64,000 nucleotides of DNA from Clostridiales bacterium. Its GTDB lineage: Bacteria > Bacillota > Clostridia > Christensenellales > Borkfalkiaceae. Below are positions 1,060 through 62,823 of this stretch, piece by piece. A program made the position numbers and the translations under genes. The first letter of the stretch is position 1. Each line of letters begins with the position of its first letter. Below the pieces are notes generated by a model that had not been told where the DNA came from, made no database searches, and saw only the letters and a list, made by a program, of their open reading frames with translations. The DNA is taken from assembly GCA_023667345.1 (NCBI GenBank), contig JAMPAF010000006.1:6997-70996 (forward strand), written 5' to 3'.

Positions 1060-1329
1060 AATTAGGAATTCGGAATTAAGAATTCAGAATTAAGAATGAA
1101 GAAATGAGGTCGATTTAAATAAATTATTCCGCAATTAAGCCTTCCCCCTGCGTGGGGAAGGTGGCTTAACCGTTTAGGTTAAGACGGATGAGGGGTGAAT
1201 TTAAAAGAATTCCCCTCACCACCGCTACGCGGAGCCTCCCCACCGAGGGGAAGCCTAAATTAAGGTCAGATTATTTTAAATACACTTTCCTTAACACAAT
1301 TCTACATTCCACATTCTGAATTCTACATT
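1060..1329. repeat. composite element: H array / P-Q hybrid hairpin core / inverted H array
   Basis: Six heptamers AATTAGG AATTCGG AATTAAG AATTCAG AATTAAG AATGAAG (1060-1101). Hairpins CCTTCCCC-ctgcgt-GGGGAAGG (1140-1161), GGCTTAACC-gttta-GGTTAAGAC (1163-1185), GATGAGGGG...CCCCTCAC (1187-1219), CCGC-tac-GCGG, and CTCCCC-accga-GGGGAAG. Five inverted heptamers CACAATT CTACATT CCACATT CTGAATT CTACATT (1295-1329). Lies in the 5' UTR of the helicase gene. Confidence 0.85.
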
Positions 1330-1357
1330 AATAAAACGCGGAGCAAATAACAATAAA

Positions 1358-2569
1358 ATGTTGATATTAAACGCCGACCAGACTGCCGCAGACAGGAAAA
1401 TAAGCGACTGGTTTTTTAACGGTACCAAGCAGTTTTTCGTGCTGTCGGGATACGCGGGCACGGGCAAGACCGCACTACTTAAACACGTCGTAAAGGAAAC
1501 GCTGAAACTCGACGATACGTTCAGCGCGGCTTTCGTTACGCCCACGGGCAAGGCGGCTACCGTTTTAATTAAAAACGGCGTGGCGGCGTGCACCGTGCAC
1601 CGCCTTATCTACCAATCGCAGATAACCGAACAGGAAGTCGAGGTAAACGGCAAAAAAATCAAGGTGGAGCGGCTCATATTCCGCCGCCGCGAAAATATAG
1701 ACAAGGCGATTAAGCTCATAGTTTTAGACGAGGCGTCGATGGTTTCGGACGACGTTTTGGCCGACGTTGCGAACTTCGGCGTAAAGGTGCTTTTGTGCGG
1801 CGACAACGCGCAGTTGCCGCCCGTAGAGGGCTTTAACAGCTTTCTGAAAAACCCCGACTACACGCTTACGCAAATCGTGCGCCAACAGCAGGACAACCCC
1901 ATTATCCGCTTATCCGAGCTCGCGCGCGAGGGCAAGCCCATACCCTTCGGACATTACGGCGAGCAGGCGTTCGTCATATACGGCAGAAAATTTGCGGGTT
2001 TTCAGCGCGAGCGGCTCTTAAAAAGAAGCGACCAGATTATCTGCGGGCTGAATAAAACGAGGGCGAAGATAAACGAAAAAATGCGGCGCATACTCGGCTT
2101 CGAGGGGTTGCCGCAAAACGGCGACAAGCTCATATGCACGCTGAATAACTGGGAAACGTTTATCGACGGCGAGGCGAGGTTTAACCTTGTAAACGGCATA
2201 ATCGGCACCGCCGTCGAACCCTTTTACGATTACAGTCAGCATATGGGCTTCACGCAGTTTAAGCCCGACTTTTTGGACGCGAACTGCCCCGAGGCGCTGC
2301 CCTTCGACACGGGCATTTTCGAGGACGGGGAATACCGCTACAAGCACGGCGACACGTTCGCGAAATTCGACGGGGACGGCGAGCCGACGGGCGTGTTTAC
2401 GCTGAACCGCTTCGAATACGGCTATTGCATATCCTGCCACAAAGCGCAGGGCTCGGAATTCGATAACGTGATTATCTTCGACGAGAGCTTTGCCTTTAAA
2501 GAGGATAAGAACCGCTGGCTATACACGGCACTTACGCGGGCGAGAAAAAAGCTAATTTTAATACGGTAA
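1358..2569 (+). CDS. RecD/Pif1/Dda-like SF1B DNA helicase (small, 403 aa)
   Basis: Walker A GYAGTGKT, Walker B VLDEASMV, and C-terminal CHKAQGSEFDNVIIF...LYTALTRARKKL typical of RecD-type helicases. A hairpin plus T-run terminator follows. Confidence 0.85.
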   Translation: MLILNADQTAADRKISDWFFNGTKQFFVLSGYAGTGKTALLKHVVKETLKLDDTFSAAFVTPTGKAATVLIKNGVAACTVHRLIYQSQITEQEVEVNGKKIKVERLIFRRRENIDKAIKLIVLDEASMVSDDVLADVANFGVKVLLCGDNAQLPPVEGFNSFLKNPDYTLTQIVRQQQDNPIIRLSELAREGKPIPFGHYGEQAFVIYGRKFAGFQRERLLKRSDQIICGLNKTRAKINEKMRRILGFEGLPQNGDKLICTLNNWETFIDGEARFNLVNGIIGTAVEPFYDYSQHMGFTQFKPDFLDANCPEALPFDTGIFEDGEYRYKHGDTFAKFDGDGEPTGVFTLNRFEYGYCISCHKAQGSEFDNVIIFDESFAFKEDKNRWLYTALTRARKKLILIR

Positions 2570-2570
2570 A

Positions 2571-2596
2571 AGGCGGCAAAAATGCCGCCTTTTTTA
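2571..2596 (+). terminator. intrinsic terminator after the helicase gene
   Basis: AGGCGGCA-aaaa-TGCCGCCT followed by TTTTT. Confidence 0.8.
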
Positions 2597-2635
2597 CAAT
2601 TACCCCCGTAATATGCCGCGATTAACACGTTTTTT

Positions 2636-2846
2636 TAATTAATTACGTAGCAAGAAAACCACGTTTTTGCGCAGCGCGCCCCAATTTGCGCATACTTTTT
2701 ACCTTGTCATTCTGAACGAAGTGAAGAATCTAGCGGGCATAGCCCGCGCACGGTAGAAATATTTAGAATATGCGGCTTCGCCTAGATTCTTCGGCAAGCC
2801 TCAGAATGACAGTGAAGGACGCCCCAAGCGGAAGATTTTTGCGAGG
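2636..2846 (+). repeat. split L element (2636-2697 and 2821-2846) with a 105-nt T-type hairpin (2706-2810) between the halves
   Basis: 5' part GTAGCAAGAAAACCACGTTTTTGCGCAGCGCGCCCCAATTTGCGCATAC and 3' part GCCCCAAGCGGAAGATTTTTGCGAGGA match the L ends. The middle is GTCATTCTGAACGAAGTGAAGAATCTAG...CTAGATTCTTCGGCAAGCCTCAGAATGAC with apical GCGGGC-ata-GCCCGC. Confidence 0.8.
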
Positions 2847-2847
2847 A

Positions 2848-3865: not shown

Positions 3866-4140
3866 TGTGGGATTAGCGGTAGGTATTTCATTCTATCCCA
3901 CGCTTGCGCGGCAAGACGTATCGGAAAGCAGTACACTCACCTGTCATTCTGAGCGAAAAGCGGTACGAAAATCTAAGTTGGAATAATAAAGCTTTCCCGC
4001 TTGCAGTCGAAGAATCTTTTTGTGCGCTTTTCTCGCACAAAAAGATTTTCACCCTAATAAAAGGCTTATTGAGGTTAAAGAGTATTAGAAAAGATTTCTC
4101 GACTACGCTCGAAATGACGCCTATGGCGTGGCGAAAAGGC
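3866..4140 (+). repeat. T composite (GTCATTCTGAGCG...CGCTCGAAATGAC) plus extra hairpins
   Basis: 3943-4118 has inverted ends GTCATTCTGAGCG / CGCTCGAAATGAC and an internal 14-bp stem AATCTTTTTGTGCG/CGCACAAAAAGATT. Same family as 29751-29984 and 62355-62643. Confidence 0.8.
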
Positions 4141-4155
4141 AGTCAAATTTAATTC

Positions 4156-4519: not shown

Positions 4520-4716
4520 TTTATCCTTTTTAATATAATAGACGTAGCGGCCAAAAACCGCGCTTTTTGGTCGCGCAACCCAATTTGCGCAAACTTGCGC
4601 CTCCGTAGGGGAATTGCCGCATTTTCAAATAATCAAGGGCTCTTAAATAATGCGACAAGGGGGCAACGCCCCTAAAATTCATTGATTTGTTTTTCATCCT
4701 CCCGAAAAACAAATCA
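4520..4716 (+). repeat. L element copy between nadD-yqeK stop and rsfS start
   Basis: GTAGCGGCCAAAAACCGCGCTTTTTGGTCGCGCAACCCAATTTGCGCAAACTTGCGCC...GGGGCAACGCCCCTAAAATTC, then a perfect 16-bp hairpin 4680-4719 whose right arm covers the nadD-yqeK stop codon. Confidence 0.8.
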
Positions 4717-5841
4717 ATGAGAAGCCTTGATATAATTATATGCCCTCAGCGTTTCTTCGTCTACGGGCTCCCCCGTGCTCTTCAGATAGTCGATTTGGTG
4801 GGACAGAGCCGCAAAAAGGCACTCTTTTAAATCGCTTTTGAAAATTTTCCGCAAAGCGTCGACCCCTTCGAATTTTCTGCCATCTTCCAACATATCGCAA
4901 AGGTATAAAAGCGCGTCGGCATCCGACATATTTTCCTTGCCCGTGGTGTGGCAGGCAATCGCGCTTAAAATTGTTTTGTCGCAAACCCCGAAACGCTTTT
5001 CAGCGACGTACGCGCCCGTATACTGGTGCAGAACGGGCGGTGGCACTTCTTTCGGCGGCGTGAAGCCCTTTAAAAGGGGGCTGTCGGTCGGAAGATATTT
5101 GCCGCAGTCGTGCAGAGCCGCCATGGTCACCGCCTGACTTTCGGTTAAATTTGCCCGCGCCGCATTCTTCGCGCACATTACGGCGACCCGCACGGTATGC
5201 GCGCTCCGCTCGGGCGTGAGCAGTTTTTTATAGCCTTGCAGTTCGGGCAGATAATACAGGGCGTTGTCCCTAATGTATTGCCCTACCGCCGCGTTTACAT
5301 ACCTGTCGAAATCTTCTCCCAGCGCGGCGAGCGTGCGTATCTCGGTGGAACTCACCTTTTCGCCCACGTAGGGAATGGCTGCGACTTCGGTCGAAAACAA
5401 GCTCTCCACCCGCGCCTTGCTCTCCGCAAAGCCCGACTGATTTTCGCGTGCGCACGCAGCAAGCGAAAAGTGCTCCAAAATCTTTTCGGGACTTTTCCAT
5501 TGCGGAAAATTTTCGAGCATGTCCGCGCCGATTATGAACCACCGCTTTGCGTCCTTGTAAAGCCCGGCAAAATGTTCGCACGTCAAATAGGTGTACGAAA
5601 CGCCGCCGCGGGTGAGCTCGAAATTGCTTATTTCCGCCTGCGGCACGCTCGCAAAGGCAAGACGGCACATCTCGTAGCGTTGCCAGAAATCCGCCGCAAG
5701 CTTGCCCGATTTGTGCGGGCTGACCGCCGTGGGCATAATTATTATTTTGTCGAGCTCCAACTCCCTCACCGCCGCGCGCGCCAGATTTACGTGCTCGCGG
5801 TGCACGGGATTGAAAGCCCCTCCTAAAATTCCGATTTTCAT
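4714..5841 (-). CDS. nadD: nicotinate-nucleotide adenylyltransferase NadD fused to HD-domain YqeK
   Basis: N-terminal MKIGILGGAFNPVHREH nucleotidyltransferase motif. The C-terminal half has the HD signature (SAHTVRVA...AALHDCGK). Firmicute synteny nadD-yqeK-rsfS is kept, but as one ORF. Start at ATG 5841 preceded by GAGAGAGGA. Confidence 0.9.
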   Translation of the reverse strand: MKIGILGGAFNPVHREHVNLARAAVRELELDKIIIMPTAVSPHKSGKLAADFWQRYEMCRLAFASVPQAEISNFELTRGGVSYTYLTCEHFAGLYKDAKRWFIIGADMLENFPQWKSPEKILEHFSLAACARENQSGFAESKARVESLFSTEVAAIPYVGEKVSSTEIRTLAALGEDFDRYVNAAVGQYIRDNALYYLPELQGYKKLLTPERSAHTVRVAVMCAKNAARANLTESQAVTMAALHDCGKYLPTDSPLLKGFTPPKEVPPPVLHQYTGAYVAEKRFGVCDKTILSAIACHTTGKENMSDADALLYLCDMLEDGRKFEGVDALRKIFKSDLKECLFAALSHQIDYLKSTGEPVDEETLRAYNYIKASH

Positions 5842-6050
5842 AATATCCTCTCTCGTCGATTTCTTTTTCAAGACGATGAAAAAAGAAATCCGACGATTTT
5901 TGGAGGCTCTGCCTCCCTGCCCGCAATTGCCCGGTGCCCACGTAATTATATAATTGCGGGCATTCCCACCGCTCAGGCGCAGGTATGCGCAAATTGGGGC
6001 GCGCTGCGCAAAAACGCGGTTTTGCTTGCTACGTTTATTATTTTAAAAAT
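5842..6050 (-). repeat. L element copy immediately upstream of nadD-yqeK
   Basis: Shares both L ends with 8558-8757, but the middle is replaced by other hairpins (GGAGGC-tct-GCCTCC; GCCCGCAATT...AATTGCGGGC). Confidence 0.8.
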
Positions 6051-8557: not shown

Positions 8558-8757
8558 ATTTCTCTCTCGTCGATTTCTTTTGCTTGGGGCGCAAAACAAA
8601 TGCGACGAATTTGAGGGCGTTGCCCTAGCCGCGCGATAAATTTAAGCCCTCTATTATTAGAAATCGCGCGGCTTTACCTACTGAGGCGCAGGTATGCGCA
8701 AATTGGGGCGCGCTGCGCAAAAGCGCGGTTTTGCTTGCTACATTTATTATTTTAAAA
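8558..8757 (-). repeat. L element copy immediately upstream of obg
   Basis: The reverse complement aligns end to end with 23685-23883. Starts right after the obg ATG. Confidence 0.85.
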
Positions 8758-9084
8758 ATTTTAATTCGCAATGCGGAATTACTTATTACGGTCGGAGTAA
8801 TCAAACGCAGACTACGTAATTCTGGATTGCCACGGGCACAAGTGCCCTCGCAATGACGGCGTCCCCAACCCCTTGCCTTCCCCGTTGAAGGGACGAGCAA
8901 CACATTTCTCAAAACAGCACTGTGCGCTGTTTTGGCGTTGCGAGATGAGCAAACGCATATGTCCCGCGTTTGCGGTGACCGAACACGCCGTTTCCCTTGC
9001 GGCGTGTGAGAAAGGTGGCTGCGTAGCAGACGGAAGAGGTTGGTTCTTTTAATTATTCCTCAGCCGCATTCCTAATTCCGAATT
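8758..9084. repeat. hairpin chain: heptamers, T2 module (8807-8859), P-like hairpin, three unique hairpins, P2/P3 modules, H array (9064-9084)
   Basis: T2 = reverse complement of CCGTCATTGCGAGGGCACTTGTGCCCGTGGCAATCCAGAATTACGTAGTCTGC. Stems CAAAACAGC/GCTGTTTTG, GCAAACGC/GCGTTTGC, ACACGCCG/CGGCGTGT. GGCTGC-gta-GCAGAC. CCGCATT CCTAATT CCGAATT overlap the rho stop. Confidence 0.8.
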
Positions 9085-10513
9085 AACTTTTAAATACTTT
9101 CAAAAACGCCTGCGATTTGACGCAGAATTCCCCGTTCGTCGCCGCCTTTTTCATCGACGCGTACAGCTCTTCCTCTTTTAAGTTTTTGGCAAGCTGTCCG
9201 CGGATAACCGCCGCGCAACCGAGTTCGTTTTCGTTCAATAAAAGCTCTTCCTTCCTCGCGCCCGAAGAGCGTATGTCGATTGCGGGGAAAACCCTTCTTT
9301 CGGCAAGCTGACGGGAAAGTACGATTTCCATATTGCCCGTAGACTTGAACTCTTCGTAAATGATATCGTCAAGTCTGCTGCCCGTATCGACGAGCGCGGT
9401 TGCGATTATTGTCAGCGAGCCGCCGTTTTCGATATTGCGCGCCGCGCCGAAAAAGCGTTTGGGCTCGACGAGAGCCTGCGGGTCGAGACCGCCCGAAAGC
9501 GTTCTGCCCGAGTTCGCGAGCGCATTGTGCGCCCTTGCAAGACGGGTTATGCTGTCGAGCAAAAGAACGACGTCCCTGCCCGTTTCCGCCTGCCGCTTTG
9601 CATATTCAAGGGTAAGCCCCGCAATGTGCGTATGGTGCACGTCGCCCTTGTCGAACGTGGAATATATCACCTCAGCGCCGTCGACAGAGCGCATAATGTC
9701 GGTGACCTCTTCGGGGCGCTCGTCCACCAAAAGCACGATAACCAGCGCGTCGGGGTGGTTGCGGCGGATACCGCACGCTATGTTTTTGAGCATAGTCGTC
9801 TTGCCCGCCTTGGGGGGCGAAACTATCAGAGCCCTCTGCCCGAAGCCTATCGGCGAGAAGAGGTCGATTACCCTGTCGGTAAGATTGCCGTCGGGGTTTT
9901 CGAGAGTTATGCGTCTGTCGGGATAGCAAGGGGTGAGGCTTTCGAAAGGAATTCCGCGGGGCGTATCGGGCGAGCGTCCGTTCACGCTTAGAATATAGGT
10001 TGCGCCCGGGCACTCGTTGGGTTTTCTGCGCTTTGCTCTGCACACTATTTTATCGCCCGTGCGCAGGCGGAAACGGTTGACGAACGAGATATGCATGAAC
10101 ACGTCGTTCGCCGAAGTTATCTGCATATTCTGCGTGCGCAGAAACCAGAACTTTTCTGTGGGCTCCAAAACGCCCGAATAGGTCGCCTCTTCCTCTTCTT
10201 CCACCGAAGAAAGCGTTAAAACGCCCTTTTCGGGCGGCTCCTCGGCAGAGCTTGCAAGCTGGGCATAGTATTGCTTGCACTTTAAAATTTCCTCCACCGT
10301 CTCAAAGTCGTACTCCTCCGACTTGGGGGGCGCGCCGCGCGTGGGACGGGGGCAAGGCTCCGTCCGGTTTTTGGCGATGGCGAGAATGTCGTCGATAATC
10401 TCCGCCTTTTTCCTCTTCGTGGGGTTAGCAACGCCAACCGCCCTGCCTATCTGCCAAAGCTGGTGTATGCCCTTTGTGTCGAGCCTTAATCTGATACTGT
10501 CGGCTAAATCCAT
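9083..10513 (-). CDS. rho: transcription termination factor Rho
   Basis: Walker A SPPKAGKTT, LLVDERPEEV, and RecA-type core with ALVDTGSRLDD...EFKSTGNMEIVL. N-terminal extension of about 110 aa before the RNA-binding domain. Confidence 0.95.
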   Translation of the reverse strand: MDLADSIRLRLDTKGIHQLWQIGRAVGVANPTKRKKAEIIDDILAIAKNRTEPCPRPTRGAPPKSEEYDFETVEEILKCKQYYAQLASSAEEPPEKGVLTLSSVEEEEEATYSGVLEPTEKFWFLRTQNMQITSANDVFMHISFVNRFRLRTGDKIVCRAKRRKPNECPGATYILSVNGRSPDTPRGIPFESLTPCYPDRRITLENPDGNLTDRVIDLFSPIGFGQRALIVSPPKAGKTTMLKNIACGIRRNHPDALVIVLLVDERPEEVTDIMRSVDGAEVIYSTFDKGDVHHTHIAGLTLEYAKRQAETGRDVVLLLDSITRLARAHNALANSGRTLSGGLDPQALVEPKRFFGAARNIENGGSLTIIATALVDTGSRLDDIIYEEFKSTGNMEIVLSRQLAERRVFPAIDIRSSGARKEELLLNENELGCAAVIRGQLAKNLKEEELYASMKKAATNGEFCVKSQAFLKVFKS

Positions 10514-12628: not shown

Positions 12629-12673
12629 AATCTGTTACCTTTTAAACTTATTATAATTTAAGTATAACATAAA
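12603..12673 (+). repeat. direct repeat copy A (tyrA start plus upstream region)
   Basis: Aligns with 13441-13510 at an offset of 838 bp. By hand count, 8 substitutions and 1 single-nt indel in about 70 nt. Confidence 0.85.
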
Positions 12674-12708
12674 ATTTAATATTTCGCAATACGGCGCACA
12701 TTACAAAT

Positions 12709-12828
12709 CAAATTTTCAATTTCCTTATCCGTAAGTTCCCTCTTTCTCGCCCTCCGCAATTTGTTTGCAACACTGAATATCAAATCTATTTTTTCCTGCG
12801 TAAGTTTTTTTCCGTTTTTGTCTATCAT
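12709..12828 (-). CDS. 39-aa basic mini-ORF (hypothetical)
   Basis: Found by hand: MIDKNGKKLTQEKIDLIFSVANKLRRARKRELTDKELKI. AAAGG SD 8 nt upstream. Divergent from the XRE gene inside the AT-rich islet. Confidence 0.3.
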
Positions 12829-13001
12829 AATTTTAACCTTTCGTTTTTTATTCACTTCTTTCGCGAAACATAAGCGTAATTAAATTATACAGACCGACCT
12901 CTTAAATTGTCAACTCGATAATTTAAAAAGTCGGTCACAATATTTGTAGAAAAATAACTATCTTTGTCGAATATTGACGAAAACAAAAAAGGCAGATTAT
13001 T

Positions 13002-13436: not shown

Positions 13437-13440
13437 ATTG

Positions 13441-13510
13441 CCCAACCCCGCAACGCAAATTTTCATAATTTGCTACATTTCAAATTTATTATAGTTTAAG
13501 TATAATATAA
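13441..13510 (+). repeat. direct repeat copy B
   Basis: See copy A. Contains the pseudo-start ATGAAAATTTGCGTTGCGGGG on the minus strand. Confidence 0.85.
13442..13466 (-). pseudogene. duplicated 5' end of tyrA (first 8 codons) with its upstream region
   Basis: ATGAAAATTTGCGTTGCGGGGTTGGG repeats the tyrA start 838 bp away. Track ORF 13218-13466 (MKICVAGLGNSTF...) is this remnant read into antisense XRE sequence. Confidence 0.7.
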
Positions 13511-17566: not shown

Positions 17567-17567
17567 T

Positions 17568-17690
17568 CCCCCCTTGCCTTCCCCTTTGAAGGGGAAGGTG
17601 GCTTGCGTAGCAAGACGAAAGAGGTTGAATTATAAAAACAACCTCTATCCCCTCTGCGAGGTACTTTCCCCTTAGAAAGGGGAAAGCAAG
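17568..17690 (+). repeat. type II P element (five hairpins, no H arrays) between tpiA and gpmI
   Basis: CCTTCCCC-tttga-AGGGGAAGG; GGCTTGC-gta-GCAAGAC; GAAAGAGGTTG-11 nt-CAACCTCTATC; CCCTC-tgc-GAGG; CTTTCCCC-ttagaa-AGGGGAAAG. Confidence 0.85.
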
Positions 17691-17726
17691 TTTGCGGTAA
17701 AATATTAAAATTCAAAAGGAATAAAT

Positions 17727-21496: not shown

Positions 21497-21522
21497 GCTA
21501 CAAATATTTTAACCGCAATATG

Positions 21523-21544
21523 ACCTTCCCCTTAGGGGGAAGGT
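21523..21544. repeat. solo P1 hairpin ACCTTCCCC-ttag-GGGGAAGGT
   Basis: Identical to the terminal hairpin of the type I P cores. Confidence 0.7.
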
Positions 21545-21583
21545 TAAATCAAGGAATTAAACAGATAAAAAAACAATTTACAT

Positions 21584-23665: not shown

Positions 23666-23684
23666 CTTTACAACATCAAAATTT

Positions 23685-23883
23685 TATTATAAAATAATAA
23701 ACGTAGCAAGCAAAACCACGCTTTTGCGCAGCGCGACCCAATTTGCGAAAACTTTCGCCTCAGTAGGTAAAGCCGCACGATTTCTAATAATCGAGGGCTA
23801 AAACCTATCGTGCGGCTAGGGCAACGCCCTCAAATTCGCAGAAAATATTTTGCGCCCCAAGCAAAAGATTTTTGCGAGAGAGG
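23685..23883 (+). repeat. L element copy immediately upstream of smpB
   Basis: AAAATAATAAACGTAGCAAGCAAAACCACGCTTTTGCGCAGCGCGACCCAATTTGCG...GCCCCAAGCAAAAGATTTTTGCGAGAGAGG, then 5 nt to the ATG. Confidence 0.85.
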
Positions 23884-23888: not shown

Positions 23889-24335
23889 ATGAAGCAGATA
23901 GCGTACAACAAGTCCGCCTCATTCGAATATTTTATCGAGACCAAATTCGAGGCGGGAATAGTTTTGGAGGGCGCGGAAGTCAAGTCTTTGCGGGCGGGCA
24001 ACTGCAACCTGAAAGACAGCTTCTGCTTTATACGGGACGGCGAAGTCACCCTAAAAAATATGCACATACCCGTCTACGACAAGAGTGGCGCGTTCAACTC
24101 AAAGGACAGCAAGCGCGATAGAAAGCTTTTACTGCACAAGTACGAAATAGACAAAATCGTCGGCAAGATAAACCAAAAGGGTATGACGCTCGTGCCCATA
24201 TCCCTCTACTTTAAGGACAACTTAATCAAGGTTGAGGTTGCGCTTTGCCGCGGCAAACAGAACTACGACAAAAAGCAGTCCATAAAAGCGCGCGATATAG
24301 ACCGCGACACAAAAAGACAGATAAAAGATTATTAA
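23889..24335 (+). CDS. smpB: SsrA-binding protein SmpB
   Basis: NKSASFEYFIETKFEAGIVLEGAEVKSLR...RKLLLHKYEI. Start at ATG 23889 preceded by GAGAGAGG. Confidence 0.95.
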   Translation: MKQIAYNKSASFEYFIETKFEAGIVLEGAEVKSLRAGNCNLKDSFCFIRDGEVTLKNMHIPVYDKSGAFNSKDSKRDRKLLLHKYEIDKIVGKINQKGMTLVPISLYFKDNLIKVEVALCRGKQNYDKKQSIKARDIDRDTKRQIKDY

Positions 24336-24625
24336 TTCGGAATTATGAATGCGGAATTCGGAATTAAAATAGACCGCATTATTACCTTCCCCTTAGGGGG
24401 AAGGTGGGTTGACCGATTAGGTCAAGCCGAATGAGGGGTTGGCTATTTAAAACCGACTAACCCCTCATCCGTCCCAACCTTACGGTTGCGACACCTTCCC
24501 CCTAAGGGGAAGGTCAAACAGCGGAATAAATTATTTAAATAATTCAACTCGGTATAATTCCGCCCCGCGCTTGCGCAGCACGGAGCGTAGCGCAGTAATT
24601 ACGAATTCTTCATTAAATAAAGGAG
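24334..24625 (+). repeat. full element: H array (24334-24368), type I P core (24384-24514), linker GCGGAATAAATTATTTA, U module (about 24571-24612)
   Basis: Five-hairpin core bounded by ACCTTCCCC-ttag-GGGGAAGGT and ACCTTCCCC-ctaa-GGGGAAGGT. The first heptamer overlaps the smpB stop. Confidence 0.9.
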
Positions 24626-25913: not shown

Positions 25914-25941
25914 AATTCGGAATGCGGAATGCGGAATTAAG
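25914..25941 (+). repeat. H array, 4 units (AATTCGG AATGCGG AATGCGG AATTAAG)
   Basis: Starts 3 nt after the metY stop and is followed by a terminator hairpin. Confidence 0.8.
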
Positions 25942-26979: not shown

Positions 26980-27178
26980 ATAAATTATTTCTTCAGCTTA
27001 ACCTTCCCCTTAGGGGGAAGGTGGCATTTTCGAAGAATGAGAAAATGTCGAATGAGGGGTTGGTTGGTTTGAACGCACTAACCCCTCATCCGTCGCCGCA
27101 TTAAGTGCGGCGACACCTTCCCCCTAAGGGGAAGGTCACAGTGCGGTTTTCATTCTTAATTCTTAATTCTTAATTTTC
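26980..27178 (+). repeat. type I P core (27001-27136) with flank AAATAAATTATTT and inverted H array (27151-27178)
   Basis: Same five-hairpin plan as 24384-24514 but with different P2 and P4 stems. The array covers the sdaA stop codon. Confidence 0.9.
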
Positions 27179-29750: not shown

Positions 29751-29984
29751 GTCATTCTGTCCCGCCGTAAGGCGGCACGAAGTAGCGGAAAGCGGTTACG
29801 TCATTCTGAGCGGAAAGCGGTACTGAAAAGTAAGTTGAAACAGTAAAGCTTTCCCGCTTGCAGTCGAAGAATCTTTTTGCGCGCCATTTCTCGCGCAAAA
29901 CACTTTTTCCTTTGATACGACGTTATTTAAGGTAAAAAAGTATCGGAAAAGATTTCTCCACTCACTACGTTCGGTCGAAATGAC
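29751..29984 (+). repeat. T composite (two GTCATTCTG modules, long internal stems, CGAAATGAC end)
   Basis: GTCATTCTGTCCCGCCGTAAGGCGGCACGAAGTAGCGGAAAGCGGTTACGTCATTCTGAGCGGAAAGCGG...TTTTGCGCGCCATTTCTCGCGCAAAA...GGTCGAAATGAC. Collinear with 3943-4118 and inverted relative to 62355-62643. Confidence 0.85.
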
Positions 29985-30039
29985 GCGCGTTGCGCGGATA
30001 CACCAATCTCCCACATTAACTGCACAATGCGCATTTAAT

Positions 30040-34589: not shown

Positions 34590-35031
34590 GCCGCATGCCG
34601 TGACACGCAGTAGCGGAAAGCGGTACACACCCACCCGTCATTATGAGGTATTTGCGGCATTGCGGACTTGTTTGAAACATTTAAGCATTTAGCCGCAAAA
34701 ACCGTAATAATCTTTTTGCGCGCCTCGAAGAGGTACTCTCGCGCAAAACTAACCTTGCCGCATTACAACGCTATTTAAGACGAACACCCGCAAACTCCGT
34801 AATTCTGGATTGCCACGTCGCTACGCTCCTCGCAATGACGGTAACCAAACACCCGCTATGCTGACGGGTCGAAATGATATGTCTTAATGTGCTCGCAAAA
34901 CAATTAAAAAAGTCGCGGGGCGAATTTTTTCGCCCCGCGACTTTTAAAATTTTTACTTTAATTCCGCCCCTTATGCTTGCAACGACACGGAGCGTAGCGC
35001 CGTAATTCCGAATTCCGAATTCCGAATTCCT
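34590..35031. repeat. mosaic block: T modules, T3 copy (34636-34766), T2 copy (34797-34841), terminator hairpin, U module, H array (35004-35031)
   Basis: T3 aligns with 43795-43924. T2 here has the apical segment GAGGAGCGTAGCGACG. AATTCCG x3 plus AATTCCT end 2 nt before the rplI stop. Confidence 0.85.
34905..34945 (-). terminator. terminator downstream of rplI (also usable on the + strand)
   Basis: 17-bp stem AAAAGTCGCGGGGCGAA/TTCGCCCCGCGACTTTT flanked by A and T runs. Confidence 0.75.
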
Positions 35032-35033
35032 AA

Positions 35034-36992: not shown

Positions 36993-37204
36993 CAACCTCT
37001 ATCCCCTCTTCGAGGTACTTTCCCCTTCAAAGGGGAAAGCAAGGGTTCCGCAGACTACGTAATTCTGGATTGCCACGGCGGCAAGCCGCCAGCGCAATGA
37101 CGGCTCCCAGCTCTCGCCTTCCACTTTGAAGGGGAAGGTGTCACCGCAGGTGACGGAAGAGGTTGGTTCAATTAAATTTTTGCCACAATTCCGCATTGCG
37201 CATT
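36993..37204. repeat. type II P element, circularly permuted and interrupted by a T2 module (37049-37103), plus H array (37184-37204)
   Basis: CAACCTCTATC (36993) and GAAGAGGTTGG (37156) now pair across the whole element. The array unit GCGCATT overlaps the glnS stop. Confidence 0.85.
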
Positions 37205-41657: not shown

Positions 41658-41880
41658 AATTAAGAATTATGAATTAAGAATTAAGAATTATGAATTAAGA
41701 ATTCGGAATTCGGAATTGTATACCCCCCTCAGTCACCGTTGGTGACAGCTCCCCCCTCTATAAAGAAGGGTGAGCCTTGCCTTAGCGCAACCCGTGGCAT
41801 ACCCCTTTTCAAGGGGGAGGCTCCCGCTTTGCGGGTGGTGGGGGTTCAATTCTTAATTCTACATTCTACATTCTGAATCA
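41658..41880 (-). repeat. full element: 9-unit H array (41658-41720), Q core (41718-41848), inverted H array (41848-41880)
   Basis: The Q core is the reverse complement of 58696-58818, with stem-loop differences. Lies between the divergent fhs and glyQS. Confidence 0.9.
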
Positions 41881-41974
41881 GAACAATTCCATACCCAATT
41901 ATATCACACGCACGCGCGAAAGTATATAATTTACACGGTAATTTTTTCGAAAATTTGCCCGCCTTGCAATTTAC

Positions 41975-43596: not shown

Positions 43597-43636
43597 AATT
43601 CGCCGCGGGATATCCCGCGGCGAATTAATTTTTTTG
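43597..43636 (+). terminator. intrinsic terminator downstream of glyQS
   Basis: AATTCGCCGCGGGA-ta-TCCCGCGGCGAATT plus AATTTTTTT. Confidence 0.8.
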
Positions 43637-43648
43637 CACCTTATTATG

Positions 43649-44106
43649 ACCTTCCCCTTAGGGGGGTCTGTTGCGGTAAAAAAGCATTTAAGAAAAGATT
43701 TCTCGATTTCGCTTACGCTCCACTCGAAATGACGCTTCTCAATCGCTACTGCGTGCCGCTTTGCGGCGGGGGCGAAATGACGCCTACTCTACCCCGTCAT
43801 TATGAGGTTTTTGCGGCATTGCGGACTTGTTTGAAACGTTAAAGTATTTAGCCGTAAAAACCGTAATAATCTTTTTGCGCGCCTCGAAGAGGTATTCTCG
43901 CGCAAAACTAACCTGCCGCATTACTGCGCAATTTAAGGTGTAAATAACACATCCCTCATCCGTCTTGACCTTAACGGTCAAGCCACCTTCCCCCTTTATT
44001 AAGGTGGAAGGCACGATTGCGGTAAAAAATTAGCCGCGCGGCTATTTGCCGCGCGGCTTAACTTTTACTTTCATTCTTAATTCTGAATTCTTAATTCTTA
44101 ATTCAC
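43649..44106. repeat. mosaic block: P1 hairpin, T ends, T3 copy (43795-43924), inverted P3-P2-P1 modules (43950-44012), palindrome GCCGCGCGGC x2, H array (44072-44106)
   Basis: The reverse complement of 43950-44012 matches 47140-47200 except for the P2 stem (CTTGACC-gttaa-GGTCAAG versus CTGC-gta-GCAG). Confidence 0.85.
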
Positions 44107-47112: not shown

Positions 47113-47373
47113 AATGCGGAATGCGGAATGCGTCGTCCCTTGCCTTCCACCTTAATAAAGGGGGAAGGTGGCTGCGTAGCAGACGGATGAGGGATGTGTA
47201 ATATGACTGCATTATAAATAAGGTCAGATTACCGAAACCTCTATCCCCTTGACCTTGACGGTCAAGGTACTTTCCCCTTAAACGCAAGGGGAAAGCAAGT
47301 ATAAGGTGATAATTCCTAATTCCTAATTCCTAATTCCTAATTCTTAATTCTTAATTCTGCATTCTTAATTAAC
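47113..47373 (+). repeat. full type II P element with both H arrays (47113-47133; 47311-47373)
   Basis: AATGCGG AATGCGG AATGCGT ... CCTTCCACC-ttaataaa-GGGGGAAGG, GGCTGC-gta-GCAGAC, GGATGAGGG...CCTCTATCC enclosing GTAATATGAC/GTCAGATTAC, CCTTGACC-ttga-CGGTCAAGG, CTTTCCCC-ttaaacgca-AGGGGAAAG, then nine CNNAATT units. Confidence 0.9.
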
Positions 47374-48306: not shown

Positions 48307-48400
48307 AATTCGGAATTAGGAATGCGGAATTCGGAATTATTCCGCAAACGTGCTTTCCACCTTAATAAAAGGGAATGCAAGAGAAGAGGTTCTATTCCGA
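48307..48400 (+). repeat. H array (5 units, 48307-48341) plus degenerate P1/P3 modules upstream of the metK riboswitch
   Basis: AATTCGG AATTAGG AATGCGG AATTCGG AATTATT; CTTTCCACC-ttaataaaa-GGGAATG; GAAGAGGTT. Confidence 0.7.
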
Positions 48401-48556: not shown

Positions 48557-48577
48557 AATTAGCAATAGAGGTACATT

Positions 48578-49762: not shown

Positions 49763-49792
49763 ATTGCAGTCAGACTTATCACCGCAAAACGA

Positions 49793-49834: not shown

Positions 49835-49900
49835 ACATAAATTTGACCATTGCAAGGGTGTAGCGGAACGAGGTACACCACCCGCCGCCGTTGGGGTATG

Positions 49901-50056
49901 CCGTCATTGCGAGGGCACTTGTGCCCGTGGCAATCCAGAATTACGTAGTCCGCGGTGTTCGCTTCCTACTTGTCGCCGTATTACCACGAGGGGATTCTCT
50001 CGGTCAATCGCCCGCTTTCAGCGGGTCTCATATCCCTCGAAATGACACACCTTAAT
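49901..50056 (+). repeat. T2 module (49901-49953) plus T4 module (inverted copy of 62355-62425)
   Basis: CCGTCATTGCGAGGGCACTTGTGCCCGTGGCAATCCAGAATTACGTAGTCCGC; then ...CCACGAGGGGATTCTCTCGGTCAATCGCCCGCTTTCAGCGGGTCTCATATCCCTCGAAATGACAC. Confidence 0.85.
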
Positions 50057-50067
50057 GTGCTTGTAAA

Positions 50068-50105
50068 TCATTTAAAAGCCGCCGCGCAAAATTTGCGCGG
50101 CGGCT
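50068..50105 (-). terminator. intrinsic terminator after ligA
   Basis: AGCCGCCGCGCAAA/TTTGCGCGGCGGCT, with TTTTAAA on the minus strand. Confidence 0.7.
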
Positions 50106-50128
50106 AAAATTTTTATTTTACCTTAATT

Positions 50129-50154
50129 GCGCATTGCCCATTGCACATTGCGAA

Positions 50155-50156
<2 letters not shown>
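50129..50156 (-). repeat. H array variant (GCGCATT GCCCATT GCACATT GCGAATT)
   Basis: Four 7-nt units. The last one overlaps the ligA stop codon (50155-50157). Confidence 0.75.
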
Positions 50157-52307
<2,151 letters not shown>

Positions 52308-52320
<13 letters not shown>

Positions 52321-54728: not shown

Positions 54729-54893
54729 GTCAATTCAGAATTAAGAATTAAGAATTTGAGTCAATTCGGAATTAGGAATTTATGTCAATTCGGAATTATG
54801 AATGCGGAATGCGTAATTATGCTAAGGTAAAAATATTTACAACAATCCGACCGTCACTCTTAATTCTACATTCTTAATTCTGCATTAATTCCG
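54729..54893. repeat. block upstream of pcrA: H units, 72-nt IR core (54784-54855), H array (54859-54893)
   Basis: The reverse complement of 54784-54855 differs from 52228-52299 at 3 of 72 positions. The flanking heptamers also correspond. Confidence 0.9.
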
Positions 54894-54898
54894 CGTTG

Positions 54899-58636: not shown

Positions 58637-58663
58637 AATTGCACAGCGTGGTAAAATTTAATC

Positions 58664-58840
58664 AATTTAGAATTAGAAATTCGGAATTCGTAATTAACCC
58701 CCACCACCGCTACGCGGAGCCTCCCCCTTGAAAAGGGGTATGCCGCGGGTTGCGACAGACAAGGCTCACCCCTTAGTAAGGGGGGAGCTGTCACGCAAGT
58801 GACAGAGGGGGGGGTATATAATTCAGTATTCCGCATTAAA
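58664..58840 (+). repeat. full element: H array (58664-58698), Q core (58696-58818), degenerate inverted H units
   Basis: AATTTAG AATTAGA AATTCGG AATTCGT AATTAAC; AACCCCCACCACCGCTACGCGGAGCCTCCCCCTTGAAAAGGGGTATGCCGCGGGTTGCG...GGGGGGAGCTGTCACGCAAGTGACAGAGGGGGGGGTATA. Sits in the 5' UTR of the transcarbamylase gene. Confidence 0.9.
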
Positions 58841-59811: not shown

Positions 59812-59850
59812 AAAGCCGCGCGGCGTTAATCTAACGCCGCGCGGCTTTTA
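59812..59850 (+). terminator. terminator after the transcarbamylase gene
   Basis: 17-bp stem AAAGCCGCGCGGCGTTA-atc-TAACGCCGCGCGGCTTT, then TTA. Confidence 0.7.
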
Positions 59851-59860
59851 CCTTGTTGTG

Positions 59861-60050
59861 ACCTTCCCCTTAGGGGGAAGGTGGCATTTTCGAGGAACGA
59901 GAAATGTCGGATGAGGGGTTGGCTCTTATAAACCTACTAACCCCTCATCCGTCCCAACCTTACGGTTGCGACACCTTCCCCCTAAGGGGAAGGTTAAATT
60001 GCGGATAAATTATTTAATTTTACCTTAATTCTTAATTCTACCTTAATTAC
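59861..60050 (+). repeat. type I P core (59861-59994), linker GCGGATAAATTATTTA, inverted H units (60024-60050)
   Basis: P2 resembles the 27001 copy, while P3-P5 are as in the 24384 copy. The array covers the metallophosphoesterase stop codon. Confidence 0.9.
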
Positions 60051-60831: not shown

Positions 60832-61500
60832 TCAGTTCTTTGCAACTATCCTGTAAATATTTTTGCCCATATCGGCAAACTTTTTTTCGTGCTCGGTCAC
60901 AATGTTTTCCCCGTCGTTCAAGGCGTGCAGGTCCTCGCACTTTTCAACTATTTCAAAGCCGCACTCCTCAAAACTTTGAAGCGAAAATTTATAAAAATCG
61001 CCGTCGTCAGTCTTTTGCACAATCTCCCCGCCGCTCTTTAAAAACAGCTTGTATTCCCGCAGAAATTTGGGGTGCGTGAGCCGCTGTTTCGCATACCCGA
61101 GCTTGGGCAAGGGGTTGGAAAAATTCAGATAAATTTTGTCTATGCTCCCCTCTTTCAGATAGCGCGGCAACACCTCGGCGGCGCTGTTTATGAAGTGAAC
61201 GTTTGTAAGCCCCTCTTCCTTCGCGCGCTCTACCGCCTCTATTAAAACGTTCGAAATTTTTTCGACGGCAATAAAGTTGATATCGGGGCGACGGGCGGCA
61301 AGCTCGCAGATAAATTTACCTTTTCCGCAACCTATTTCGAGGTGTACGGGGTTATTATTGCCGAAAATTTCGGCAAAATTCAGCTCATCTTTTTGCGCCG
61401 CGGCGTTTTTCATATTTTTATCGGCTAAATCGGCGGCCGTCAAAAGCGACCCGCACGCCGACAACCTTTCGTCCAAATGTGATTTTCTGTGCATTCTCAT
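60832..61500 (-). CDS. trmB: tRNA (guanine46-N7)-methyltransferase
   Basis: LEIGCGKGKF SAM motif, YLNFSNPLPK, and HEKKF. Start trimmed to ATG 61500. Confidence 0.9.
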   Translation of the reverse strand: MRMHRKSHLDERLSACGSLLTAADLADKNMKNAAAQKDELNFAEIFGNNNPVHLEIGCGKGKFICELAARRPDINFIAVEKISNVLIEAVERAKEEGLTNVHFINSAAEVLPRYLKEGSIDKIYLNFSNPLPKLGYAKQRLTHPKFLREYKLFLKSGGEIVQKTDDGDFYKFSLQSFEECGFEIVEKCEDLHALNDGENIVTEHEKKFADMGKNIYRIVAKN

Positions 61501-61706
61501 AACGCAGATTTTACCACACAAACGCGCCTTCCCGCAAGTGAAATGTTCACGTATTAATTTTATTTTTATTTTGAATAGCCGCGTTTTATGCACGCCGCTT
61601 TTGCTTACAAATAAGCGTCGGGTGAAAATAATTAAATTAACGGGGCATTGAAAAGCCTTTTTTATTGCGTCGGGTGGACTTTTAAAAGCCCCGAAAGGAG
61701 TAAAAA

Positions 61707-62255
61707 ATGACCGTTATTGAAATTATAGACGCCTTTACGTTTTACGGGCTCGATATCATTGCGCTTGCCGCGGCAACGAGCGTTTTCGTGCAGATTTTAA
61801 AGCTTACGCTGCTTAAAAACTGCCAGAAAAAGGTCGTTACCTTTCTGCCCTTTCTGATAGGCGCGCTCCTCTACACAGGTTACAGCGCGCTTGTCAATCT
61901 AAGCTTCCGCTACGTCATAGACAACTACGTAGACGTGCTCGAACACGGCTTTTCGGTGGGCGCGCTTTCCACCCTTATCTACGTTTGGTACGAGCAGTTT
62001 GTGCGCAACAAAACCAAGGGGAGCGCGACAGCGGGCGTGATATCCACTCTGATAGAGGAATACGTTCCCAAGGAAGAGGTTGAAAAGATTGCGGCGGATA
62101 TTGCGCACGCTATCGAAAAGGACGTTACGGGCGACGGAGCTAAAAAGTGTGCGGAAATTTTGGCGGCGCACAGCCTCGAAGAGGTGACGGAAAACGATAT
62201 AAAGGTGCTCTCGCGCCTTATTATCGAAACGCTTGCGCATATCGGCACGTCTTGA
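61707..62255 (+). CDS. hypothetical membrane protein (182 aa)
   Basis: AAAGGAG SD. 3-4 TM segments, then an acidic helical tail. A terminator follows. Confidence 0.6.
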   Translation: MTVIEIIDAFTFYGLDIIALAAATSVFVQILKLTLLKNCQKKVVTFLPFLIGALLYTGYSALVNLSFRYVIDNYVDVLEHGFSVGALSTLIYVWYEQFVRNKTKGSATAGVISTLIEEYVPKEEVEKIAADIAHAIEKDVTGDGAKKCAEILAAHSLEEVTENDIKVLSRLIIETLAHIGTS

Positions 62256-62275
62256 TATTTATACCGTAAAACAGC

Positions 62276-62311
62276 GATATCCACCCCTCCGCGGGTGGAT
62301 ATCTGCGTTTT
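62276..62311 (+). terminator. intrinsic terminator after the 182-aa membrane protein gene
   Basis: GATATCCACCC-6 nt-GGGTGGATATC plus TGCGTTTT. Confidence 0.75.
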
Positions 62312-62354
62312 AAAAGCGAATATAATTATACACTTTTACAAGCTTATAGGAGCG

Positions 62355-62823
62355 TGTCATTTCGAGCGATTGAGAATCCCGCGTAGCGGGTTCGATTGAG
62401 TCGAGAGAATCCCCTCGTGGTAATACGTGAAAAATTGGGAAGTGATATCACCTTAAATAACATTGTAATGTGGCAAGATTAGTTTTGCGCGAGAAAGGGC
62501 GCGCAAAAAGATTCTTCGACTGCAAGCGGGAAAACTTTATTATTTCATCTTACTTTATCATACCGCTTTTCGCTCAGAATGACAGTTGGCGGTGATACCG
62601 CTTTTTCGCTACTCCGTGCCGCCTGCGGCGGGGCAGAATGACGGATTGAGAATTGCTTTCGCTACTGCGGACAAAGGCATACCCCTTTTCATTCTTTACG
62701 AAAGTAAGTTTAAGATAATAAGAAGATTTGGGTGCAGCGACACGCTGCCTCCCGCGTAACGGGTGGTGGGGGTTTCATTCTGAATTCTGAATTCTAAATT
62801 CTGAATTCTTAATTCTTAATTCT
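62355..62823 (-). repeat. T4 plus inverted T composite (62355-62643), Q fragment (62677-62775), 7-unit H array (62775-62823)
   Basis: GTGTCATTTCGAGCGATTGAGAATCCCGCGTAGCGGGTTCGATTGAG...; CGCTCAGAATGAC...GGGGCAGAATGACGG; GGGTGGTGGGGGTT. The array ends 2-4 nt before the gerXC stop. Confidence 0.85.

Follow-up and report, generated by a model that had tools for sequence, protein, structure and literature searches.

Interleaved palindromic repeat families in the intergenic DNA of a housekeeping region from an uncultured Christensenellales bacterium

The stretch of DNA analysed here, called the window below, comprises 64,000 nt of contig JAMPAF010000006.1 (positions 6,997 to 70,996; GenBank assembly GCA_023667345.1) and is part of the chromosome of an uncultured gut member of the Christensenellales (Clostridia). 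Its RNase R shares 73 to 84% identity with proteins from uncultured Clostridia that carry the labels Christensenella, Coproplasma or Borkfalkiaceae. The GC content is about 50%, and the cumulative GC skew declines steadily over the full length. The genes form an ordinary housekeeping set: recD2-like, nadD-yqeK, rsfS, obg, rho, pgk, tpiA, gpmI, secG, rnr, smpB, metY, metA, sdaA, htrA, galU, rplI, glnS/gltX, fhs, proS-like, an ABC-F gene, metK behind an S-adenosylmethionine (SAM) riboswitch, ligA, pcrA, queH, pyrB-like, trmB and gerAC. Between them lie 25 blocks of short, hairpin-rich repeats, and the genes that flank these blocks are functionally unrelated to each other.

The blocks were defined by reading every gap and by motif mapping. 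They add up to 5,643 nt, or 57% of the 9,772 non-coding nt, in agreement with a first-pass annotation of the same DNA, which had counted about 25 blocks and roughly 6 kb and had taken them to be most of the non-coding DNA. Its statement that almost every gap is filled is somewhat too strong, since the repeats occur in 25 of the 42 intergenic gaps of at least 40 nt. The blocks are built from heptamer arrays (H), PhE units (a plan that covers the modules P and Q), CGTC-tagged hairpins (T) and the elements L, U and M, and the named modules were all recovered by Tandem Repeats Finder, a repeat finder and self-BLAST. The pattern (AATTNNG)3AATT has 19 matches in the window and none in 100 shuffles. 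Modules re-assort across the 25 blocks, as that annotation had proposed, and are found in the orders H-PhE2-U-H, H-Q-H, H-U-H-M-H, L-H-M-T-P-H, T-U-H and T-Q-H. It had also described several open reading frames (ORFs) as translations of repeats; we located four such mechanical ORFs (3904-4152, 8625-8912, 48277-48627 and 49764-50045).

The blocks are insertions. Seven loci of metagenome-assembled genomes (L001 and L003 to L008) are colinear with the 8 to 35 kb part of the window, with a gene nucleotide identity of 70 to 88%. Five orthologous gaps lack the inserts in these syntenic relatives, so that the insertion polymorphism set as a test in the first-pass annotation is present. The tpiA>gpmI gap measures 6 to 7 nt in the relatives (L001, L004) and 160 nt in the window; the smpB>metY gap, 12 to 15 nt (L003, L004, L007) and 300 nt; the rnr>smpB gap, 20 to 31 nt and 218 nt; the htrA<galU gap, about 0 to 21 nt and 317 nt; and the obg<rho gap, about 0 nt (L001) and 483 nt. 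The inserts are placed between the stop codon and the retained ribosome-binding site (RBS). The relatives' loci, 0.8 Mb in all, yielded a single PhE unit, eight T tags and not one H array, a density of nearly zero, whereas the window carries 29.7 H, 17.2 PhE and 20.3 T per 100 kb. Copies within the window are 89 to 96% identical, which is above the identity of the relatives' orthologous genes. Therefore, the expansion was recent and lineage specific.

A PhE unit consists of a G/C hairpin (CCTTCCCC-loop-GGGGAAGG; P), the dinucleotide TG, a perfect but highly variable mini-hairpin (h), and a G-rich tail (CGGATGAGGGG; E). Most units are joined into inverted doublets, P-h-E(loop)E'-h'-P', of about 145 to 190 nt with the extra termini TTACCGCAAT...ATTGCGGTAA. 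As a single strand, P-h-E-h'-P' folds into a cloverleaf in which pairing of the P halves closes three arms with a stem of about 24 bp, with a dG of -49 to -56 kcal/mol and z of -9.6 to -12.6. The module P2 (CTTTCCCC/GGGGAAAG) and both halves of Q follow the PhE plan with other sequences. The ten variable hairpins of the window's PhE units are almost all different, and the linkers around them are constant.

Covariation was measured on 148 unique PhE units, collected with a search pattern in which P and E were fixed and the middle hairpin was free. Stem pairs were counted at end-anchored positions; MAFFT had misaligned the 5' half on account of differences in loop length. The anchored pairs of the middle hairpin are Watson-Crick in 78 to 97% of the 148 units. 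At pairs 0, 2, 3, 4, and 5, shuffles were Watson-Crick in 29 to 54% and never in more than 62%, and all four pair types were seen at pairs 0, 2, 4, and 5. Pair 1 is a nearly invariant C-G and therefore carries no covariation signal. The 148 units contain 53 distinct stems. The P stem, too, has undergone a coupled change, from CCTTCCCC/GGGGAAGG to CCTTCTCC/GGAGAAGG. G-T pairs outnumber A-C pairs in the PhE stems by 10 to 3, which is a weak signal. The loops of the variable hairpins are mainly GAA, GCA, GTA, and GGA triloops or CGCA. PhE and T alike have GCGAAGC as their most frequent variable hairpin, a DNA mini-hairpin reported by Hirao et al. to be exceptionally stable. The paired changes and stem swaps between constant linkers that had been reported from the window are thus present there and in the 148 units from elsewhere, and stem pairing is well above that of shuffles, so that the covariation test gave a strong result. 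Stem-loop folding had been claimed for nearly every module; it is pronounced in PhE (z down to -12.6), clear in blocks bracketed by arrays (-4.3 and -6.4) and in T dimers (-3 to -4.7), and weaker in L.

From its tag (CGTC or TGTC), a T unit runs through ATTGC or ATTCT and GAG to an inner hairpin and on through CGYG and GCAAT or AGAAT to a CCA-like tail. Its geometry is that of a 5-bp outer stem and an internal loop (GAG/CGYG) below a variable inner hairpin. The window contains 13 to 14 tags, reading CGTCATT or TGTCATT, and the stem starts directly 3' of the tag as ATTGC...GCAAT or ATTCT...AGAAT, with A-T pairs first. Most T units form head-to-head dimers of 100 to 230 nt. The ATTGC-type copies at 8806-8860, 34790-34850, 37060-37110, and 49902-49950 carry the tail GGCAATCCAG; ATTCT-type copies end in AGAATCT, not in a CCA-like tail. 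The copies at 3942 and 29799 hold about 50 nt within the hairpin. In the hairpins of these four intervals, and in those of the loci L382 to L498, a constant outer stem and internal loop surround a free inner hairpin, often GCGAAGC. They have the constant-linker and variable-hairpin logic of PhE and no sequence in common with it.

The first-pass annotation did not recognise any of these sequences as a named family. For T, this no longer holds, and by that annotation's own standard a match to a described repeat family refutes its proposal for this module. The CGTC-tagged superfamily of repetitive extragenic palindromic (REP) sequences, which includes Neisseria dRS3 and Rickettsia RPE-4/-6, was described by Di Nocera, De Gregorio and Rocco in 2013 (PMC3733652). 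Its members have an unpaired CGTC tag (variants TGTC and CCTC), A-T pairs at stem positions one and two, a stem of 8 to 9 bp, a loop of 4 to 5 nt and an unpaired CCA tail, and head-to-head dimers predominate (PMC3733652). T shares the tag, the A-T start of the stem, the dimers (with spacers of 20 to more than 100 nt), the intergenic location and, in the ATTGC type, the CCA-like tail. Like these repeats, it has no known dedicated transposase. However, its stem is compound (5 bp, internal loop, inner hairpin) in place of a plain 8 to 9 bp, and because it departs in this way from the published stem and loop, we file T as a variant within the superfamily, outside its families 1 to 4. Its host also differs. 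The published hosts are Proteobacteria, Chlorobi, Bacteroidetes, Spirochaetes and Thermotogae, with no mention of Firmicutes or Clostridia (PMC3733652), so that CGTC-type repeats are hereby extended to Clostridia.

The H arrays have the formula (AAT[T/G]NNG)n. There are about 25 of them, with 2 to 8.5 units each, and all are intergenic. In each heptamer, five positions (AAT[T/G]..G) are conserved and two are free; superperiods of 14 and 21 nt are seen. The arrays nearly always stand in inward-facing forward...reverse pairs around a GC-rich core, which is U, Q, M or PhE. Among array pairs within 300 nt, 23 are forward-then-reverse and 4 reverse-then-forward. The outer array often begins in or directly past a stop codon. 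Relative to the genes, the orientation of H is unbiased (25 versus 29). The outer arrays of block 21 are inverted repeats of each other (about 28 nt, match about 89%), and the array pair of block 16 shares the AATT..G skeleton only. The H-M-H element at 52197-52307 recurs reverse-complemented at 54787-54895, with an identity of about 88 to 90% by eye. Therefore, arrays are copied along with their element. That the arrays are footprints of target-site duplication was ruled out by their relation within a block, which is inverted, not direct.

By analogy, the closest published counterpart of H is the set of intergenic TAACTGA heptamer arrays of Beggiatoaceae, Cyanobacteria and Bacteroidetes (MacGregor 2015, PMC4679880). 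Like these arrays and other heptanucleotide long simple sequence repeats, H has a tandem 7-nt unit, is confined to intergenic DNA and lies beside gene ends; stop codons are often contained or overlapped, and occurrence in scattered phyla suggests horizontal spread. In contrast, the H unit has two free positions where TAACTGA is a fixed heptamer, its arrays form inverted inward-facing pairs around GC-rich hairpins, and there is no bias towards a downstream start codon.

The L element is about 180 nt long, has five copies and folds weakly (z of -2.2 and -3.3). It had been described as a leader of roughly 200 nt, a role that is ruled out by the copies themselves, whose orientation relative to transcription differs (4554 versus 23712). 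An identification of L with ssrA was likewise ruled out, despite its position next to smpB, because a tRNA and tmRNA scan of the window found none. Outside this genome, the only traces of L are a metagenome contig (L361, 7666-7845), which is 80% identical to window positions 8554-8733, and a single viral match (L499); U has no match in viral contigs. On the sequences available, L, U and M appear to be private to this lineage. In the metK region, a perfect promoter (TTGACA-17-TATAAT, 48277-48305) is followed at once by the array and hairpin of block 19 (48307-48380), then by the SAM riboswitch (48428-48511) and metK; the repeat appears to be an insertion in the riboswitch leader. The possibility that the modules are intrinsic terminators was ruled out, because the true terminators in the gaps are separate hairpins with T tails. 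Those at 25950-25990, 44032-44058, 50077-50105, and 59812-59848 are similar to each other (AGCCGCGCGGC...GCCGCGCGGCT plus a T tail) and often lie just outside or between repeat modules.

PhE, H and T are cosmopolitan across distant bacteria and phages; for PhE, these include phages and metagenomes of the gut. We found PhE in at least 120 stretches of IMG/VR viral contigs, in 21 GenBank phages from human faeces, in 87 metagenome stretches (GC 0.39 to 0.66) and in 200 plasmid or chromid records, which belong to Rhizobium (89), Sinorhizobium (64), Shinella (18) and Azospirillum (16) as well as Xanthomonas and Planctomyces. One unit lies on pSymB of S. meliloti. The matching plasmid records carry no repeat annotation. 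The AT-rich PhE doublet of the window gave no BLAST match to plasmids; the GC-rich consensus was needed. H occurs in at least 120 stretches of viral contigs with GC of 0.22 to 0.66, with the same skeleton and free NN, often as inward-facing pairs around GC hairpins and sometimes beside CGTC hairpins. A BLAST search of GenBank phages with the heptamer array gave no match, probably through low-complexity masking. T was found in at least 120 stretches of viral contigs, and the matches listed include 124 distinct hairpins of exactly the same build. A related motif, CCCTCACCC...CCCTCTCCC-loop-GGGAGAGGG, is present one to four times each in 4,548 of 5,426 complete E. coli genomes, where it is unannotated (for example, NZ_CP141080.1, 455022-455058); the K-12 record has no repeat features. 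A metagenome locus (L352, WFLX010094249.1, 12600-13300) holds four tandem units of about 205 nt, each with a PhE that is 90 to 95% identical to window positions 24459-24513 and 59935-60007, a tandem layout not seen in the window.

Rfam 15, in gathering and E-value modes, returned only the SAM riboswitch from the window and nothing relevant from eight other loci carrying PhE or H. Literature searches with T, PhE and H sequence strings gave primers, unrelated matches or nothing. The modules are therefore unnamed in Rfam, as had been expected, although T belongs with a published superfamily and PhE and H are anything but confined to this genome. The view that they form a single superfamily was not borne out: H, the PhE-type modules (P and Q), T and L have no common sequence, and elsewhere they mostly occur apart (among the matches listed, H is present at 4 of 120 PhE loci and PhE at none of 120 H loci). 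The peculiarity of this genome is the joint high density of the modules.

The orientation of PhE was determined from open frame and codon position; calls based on the longest ORF were too noisy in high-GC contigs. Among the viral contigs listed, single PhE units between co-directional genes are antisense in 49 cases and sense in 2, which is not a count of independent events, since the contigs may be mutually related. The viral mRNA thus reads E'-h'-P' directly before the RBS. In the metagenome stretches, the orientations are 10 versus 11, mostly of heterodimers, and in the window nearly all PhE units are doublets, which makes orientation uninformative there. In the IMG/VR loci L051 to L170 (for example, L058 at 355-397, 1346-1389, and 4767-4810), single PhE units almost always lie opposite to the gene strand, the P hairpin ends 5 to 15 nt before the RBS and start codon of the next gene, and consecutive units of one contig share an orientation.

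The repeats are an unusually dense case of a known type of bacterial junk-or-regulatory DNA and not a new type of element. Their mosaic, like those called BIME and RIME, interleaves four or more unrelated families, and the comparison with BIME, BOX and Correia elements drawn in the first-pass annotation is reasonable by architecture. As in the BIME of E. coli and in RIME, several palindromic units and conserved linkers are reordered as intergenic mosaics, with a function that is unknown or secondary. The likeness is one of architecture: the absence of GTAG heads makes it unlikely that the units are E. coli-type REPs, and the repeats take up a far larger share of the non-coding DNA (57%) than in those genomes. 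RIME, Sm-repeats and the 'AB, C palindromes' of Sinorhizobium meliloti are among the repeats named in PMC2573895. The window repeats also resemble, again in architecture, miniature inverted-repeat transposable elements (MITEs) such as Correia/NEMIS, RUP, BOX, and bcr1. They are 100 to 300 nt long, fold strongly, sit in or beside transcription units and show presence/absence polymorphism, and non-coding terminal inverted repeats of the MITE type are found in T dimers, PhE doublets and H-M-H (the repeat of about 28 nt). Unlike MITEs, they have no legible target-site duplication and no known parent insertion sequence: none is in the window, and when an autonomous element was sought in other contigs, the ORFs between inverted arrays or neighbouring PhE units were ordinary phage genes.

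A third comparison is with REPINs, REP-type repeats served by a single-copy transposase encoded elsewhere, the RAYT (Bertels and Rainey 2011, PMC3116915; Nunvar et al.). Both consist of inverted doublets of short palindromes that form one long hairpin or cloverleaf, and both occur as many near-identical, lineage-specific intergenic copies; a mobilising enzyme would be expected as a single copy elsewhere. However, the window modules lack a terminal GTAG (GTAG occurs only in hairpin loops, such as CTGC-GTA-GCAG), a PhE unit has two hairpins and a tail where a REPIN unit has one hairpin, and the PhE linkers, unlike REPIN sequences, are conserved from one phylum to another. No transposase or recombinase domain was detected in the window proteins with Pfam and NCBIfam, and no RAYT (Y1 HUH transposase) gene lies in the 64 kb. 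The earlier statement that no protein of the window could mobilise the repeats is thus right, but the absence is not noteworthy: it is as expected for elements served in trans. No RAYT gene is known for this lineage, and to our knowledge no mobilising enzyme has been described for the CGTC repeat class as a whole.

On balance, we favour the reading that the modules are non-autonomous palindromic repeats of the REP/REPIN/MITE type that spread in trans, likely via single-stranded DNA hairpins. Terminal inverted repeats, doublets, cloverleaf folds with z down to -12.6, T dimers and a solo P remnant are traits of mobile elements. GNA-triloop and CGCA hairpins, GCGAAGC among them, and the unbiased orientation of H are hints of single-stranded DNA. 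We infer a mobilising enzyme, a single-stranded DNA intermediate, slippage and an effect at the RNA level. In this scenario, several independent palindromic families would have colonised spacers that are normally tiny and would now lie in adjacent or nested mosaics. One or more enzymes with genes elsewhere than in the window would copy or move them in trans; nucleases or transposases recognising single-stranded DNA hairpins (HUH/RAYT-like) are the most plausible candidates. The heptamer arrays may lengthen and shorten through replication slippage. Insertions would survive only where they are harmless, typically between a stop codon and the RBS that follows. Since the blocks are sited inside operons and leaders, they are co-transcribed, and the repeats probably act secondarily as RNA hairpins on mRNA stability or processing.

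Several points weigh against this reading. No mobilising enzyme was identified in the 64 kb. No target-site duplication is clearly legible when filled and empty sites are compared: a TTAA stands on each side of the smpB>metY insert and not at block 1. Any duplication would be obscured because element ends and targets are both rich in AATT/TTAA. The middle hairpins of PhE differ completely among most copies while the linkers stay constant, a pattern that simple recent copy-paste from one master does not give. This variety points to old subfamilies, structural selection or a process that regenerates hairpins. Linkers conserved from Clostridia to Rhizobiaceae and Xanthomonas suggest a conserved partner or function and not drifting junk. 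The strand bias of viral PhE fits better with an RNA-level role or replication-biased insertion than with neutral DNA.

The main alternative is that the modules are primarily cis-acting RNA structures under selection, which would stabilise intercistronic RNA, mark sites of RNase processing or modulate the start of translation. PhE would then set a Shine-Dalgarno-like GGGGAAGG, paired with an anti-Shine-Dalgarno-like CCUUCCCC, just upstream of the RBS, and the many copies would be due to recruitment, not to selfish spread. We consider this alternative rather doubtful. The blocks are certainly transcribed (they occupy stop-to-RBS gaps in operons and, at metK, the leader between promoter and riboswitch), yet close relatives manage the same genes without the elements, and the flanking genes are functionally unrelated. 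Strong covariation of the variable hairpin and linkers constant across phyla would suit an RNA, as would the weak excess of G-T over A-C pairs; the loops, however, are much more frequently GNA triloops, a DNA type, than the GNRA or UNCG loops of RNA, and no module in the window or at the eight other loci matched an Rfam family. The order E'-h'-P' then RBS in 49 of 51 single viral units speaks in its favour, but kinship among phage contigs may have inflated it, PhE on chromosomal (metagenome) DNA and H are both unbiased, and the window's units are nearly all inverted doublets, which present both orientations at each site.

It is improbable, again by analogy, that the H arrays are operator-like or centromere-like binding arrays for a small DNA-binding protein, with the hairpin cores as incidental passengers. 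A precedent is the omega protein of plasmid pSM19035, a ribbon-helix-helix protein that binds arrays of 7-bp heptads cooperatively. Five fixed and two free positions, direct runs alongside inward-facing inverted ones, superperiods of 14 and 21 nt and the lack of strand bias relative to genes would all agree with such a code, and the presence of arrays in contigs ranging from 0.22 to 0.66 in GC argues for sequence-specific retention. However, the analysis turned up no candidate for the binding protein, operators and centromeres do not usually number in the hundreds per genome, and proximity to stop codons suits tolerated insertion better than regulation. Arrays are also inherited within copied elements (52197-52307 and the reverse complement at 54787-54895), and replication slippage alone yields heptamer arrays in many genomes, according to work by Mrazek as relayed in PMC4679880. 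That the whole pattern is an artefact of chance low complexity, misassembly or misread terminators is next to impossible. Some hairpins in the same gaps are indeed ordinary intrinsic terminators, and weak pieces exist, such as the degenerate P at 8866-8895 and arrays of 2 units; but the H pattern never arose in the 100 shuffles, folds reach z of -12.6, families are 89 to 96% identical, the modules recur in hundreds of independent public contigs, and the flanking genes are intact and syntenic.

Cross-phylum linkers around a free hairpin and the strand bias of viral PhE keep the case from being routine. A bolder proposal, which we think unlikely, is that PhE and the CGTC hairpin are one ancient cross-phylum cis element, as opposed to drifting selfish DNA, whose linkers (GGTG...CGGATGAGGGG and GAG...CGYG) would be bound by a conserved protein. 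That partner might be an enzyme that acts on hairpins of single-stranded DNA, or else a factor that binds RNA. In phages, the element would serve in a fixed orientation just upstream of the RBS, and H would be a second, independent protein-binding code. If this were true, the Christensenellales genome would be a natural 'amplified' system for finding the partner proteins. Few parts of bacterial genomes are as poorly understood as small palindromic repeats (REP, BIME, RIME, MITE), and PhE and the AAT[T/G]NNG arrays, common to distant phyla and many phage contigs, are absent from Rfam and the literature searched. Expansion past half of the non-coding DNA, with almost none in sister species, makes this lineage favourable for finding the enzyme or binding proteins. 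It would also allow the effect on expression of hairpin inserts of 150 to 500 nt between translationally coupled genes to be measured. In practice, the repeats create spurious ORFs and probably break short-read assemblies of the clade. The composition of the blocks is given in Table 1.

Table 1. Composition of the 25 repeat blocks and positions of the T tags and T pairs, in window coordinates
Feature	Position	Strand	Content	Context	Fold z
Block 1	1056..1345		Forward array 1060-1097; PhE (P 1140-1161, variable hairpin, E 1186-1221); Q-like half; M linker 1264; reverse array 1299-1329	Divergent gap; ends 13 nt before RBS of gene 1358	
Block 2	2645..2815		L fragment 2645-2698; head-to-head T dimer 2705-2811, TGTCATTCTGA...TCAGAATGACA		-4.7
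Block 3	3941..4125		T element between tags TGTCATTCTGAG (3942) and CTCGAAATGACG (4108-4119); 89% identity to copy 29800-29884		
Block 4	4554..4680	+	L copy	nadD/rsfS gap	
Block 5	5972..6050	-	L fragment, 96% identity to 8681-8759		
Block 6	8600..9089		L 8600-8759; short forward array 8763-8779; M linker; CGTC hairpin 8806-8860; degenerate P and other hairpins; PhE-like ~9000-9050; reverse array 9068-9084	Reverse array abuts rho stop	
Block 7	17567..17712		PhE heterodimer (P 17577-17598, P2 17664-17686)	tpiA stop to gpmI RBS	-6.8
Block 8	21507..21560		Solo P hairpin retaining element termini (TTAACCGCAAT...); probably a collapsed dimer remnant		
Block 9	23682..23868	+	L element	rnr/smpB gap	
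Block 10	24334..24620		Forward array 24334-24364; P-h-E-h'-P' cloverleaf 24385-24513; U 24545-24600; short reverse array	smpB stop (overlapped by forward array) to metY RBS	-9.6 (cloverleaf)
Block 11	25914..25941	+	Lone forward array, then ordinary terminator hairpin	3 nt past metY stop	
Block 12	26985..27175		P-h-E-h'-P' cloverleaf 27002-27135; reverse array 27152-27175	Reverse array overlaps stop of gene 27170-28363	-12.3 (cloverleaf)
Block 13	29760..29995		T elements, tag 29799; CGAAATGAC end near 29985		
Block 14	34590..35033		T 34636-34840; terminator; U 34950-35003; (AATTCCG)4 35004-35030; 34634-34755 is 95% identical to 43793-43914	Array abuts rplI stop	
Block 15	36993..37204		Split PhE heterodimer (P2 37018-37039, P-h-E 37117-37162) with CGTC hairpin between; short reverse array at end		
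Block 16	41658..41885		Forward array of 8.5 units 41658-41717; reverse-oriented Q 41718-41848; reverse array 41849-41878	Divergent gap	-6.4
Block 17	43633..44105		Half P; T (43723, 43795); PhE on minus strand 43954-44011; terminator hairpins; reverse array 44073-44103	Reverse array beside stop of gene 44124	
Block 18	47113..47372		Forward array 47113-47132; P-h-E 47143-47192; M linker; P2 half 47270-47295; reverse array of 8.5 units 47310-47370	Reverse array abuts stop of gene 47373	-5.9
Block 19	48307..48380	+	Forward array 48307-48337; P2-like hairpin	Within metK leader	
Block 20	49895..50156		T (CGTCATTGCGAGGGCACTTGTGCCCGTGGCAATCCAG at 49902, end tag 50036-50047); terminator; AATGNGC-type reverse array 50126-50156		
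Block 21	52112..52320		Forward array; reverse-oriented U (52112-52190); H-M-H 52197-52307		-4.3
Block 22	54732..54890		Three forward arrays; M core; reverse array		
Block 23	58663..58840		Forward array 58663-58695; Q 58696-58822 (heterodimer of two PhE-like units); short reverse array		-5.0
Block 24	59845..60048		P-h-E-h'-P' cloverleaf 59862-59993, 92-95% identity to copies at 24428 and 27001; reverse array 60014-60048	Reverse array overlaps stop of gene 60043	-12.6 (cloverleaf)
Block 25	62355..62823		T 62355-62584 and further GAATGAC ends; Q half 62720-62775; reverse array of 6.7 units 62777-62823	Reverse array abuts stop of gene 62826	
T tags	2705, 3942, 29799, 34636, 43795, 49902, 62355	+			
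T tags	2800, 4108, 8847, 34829, 43723, 50036, 62573	-			
T head-to-head pairs	2705/2811, 3942/4119, 34636/34840, 49902/50047, 62355/62584				

Some other features of the window were noted. The gene at 44124-45203 (minus strand), adjoining block 17, encodes a 359-aa protein with no family apart from a sub-threshold Phage_int_M match; it is the sole window gene with a recombinase-like signal and is probably unrelated to the repeats. A direct repeat of 70 nt (12603-12672 and 13441-13510) brackets a small HTH_3 (Xre-type) gene at 13002-13436 in the lowest-GC part of the window (0.41), and 12603-13510 may be a small inserted or duplicated unit, separate from the hairpin repeats. Two short cysteine-rich ORFs, at 14121-14340 and 35586-35738 (both on the plus strand), lie in repeat-free gaps.

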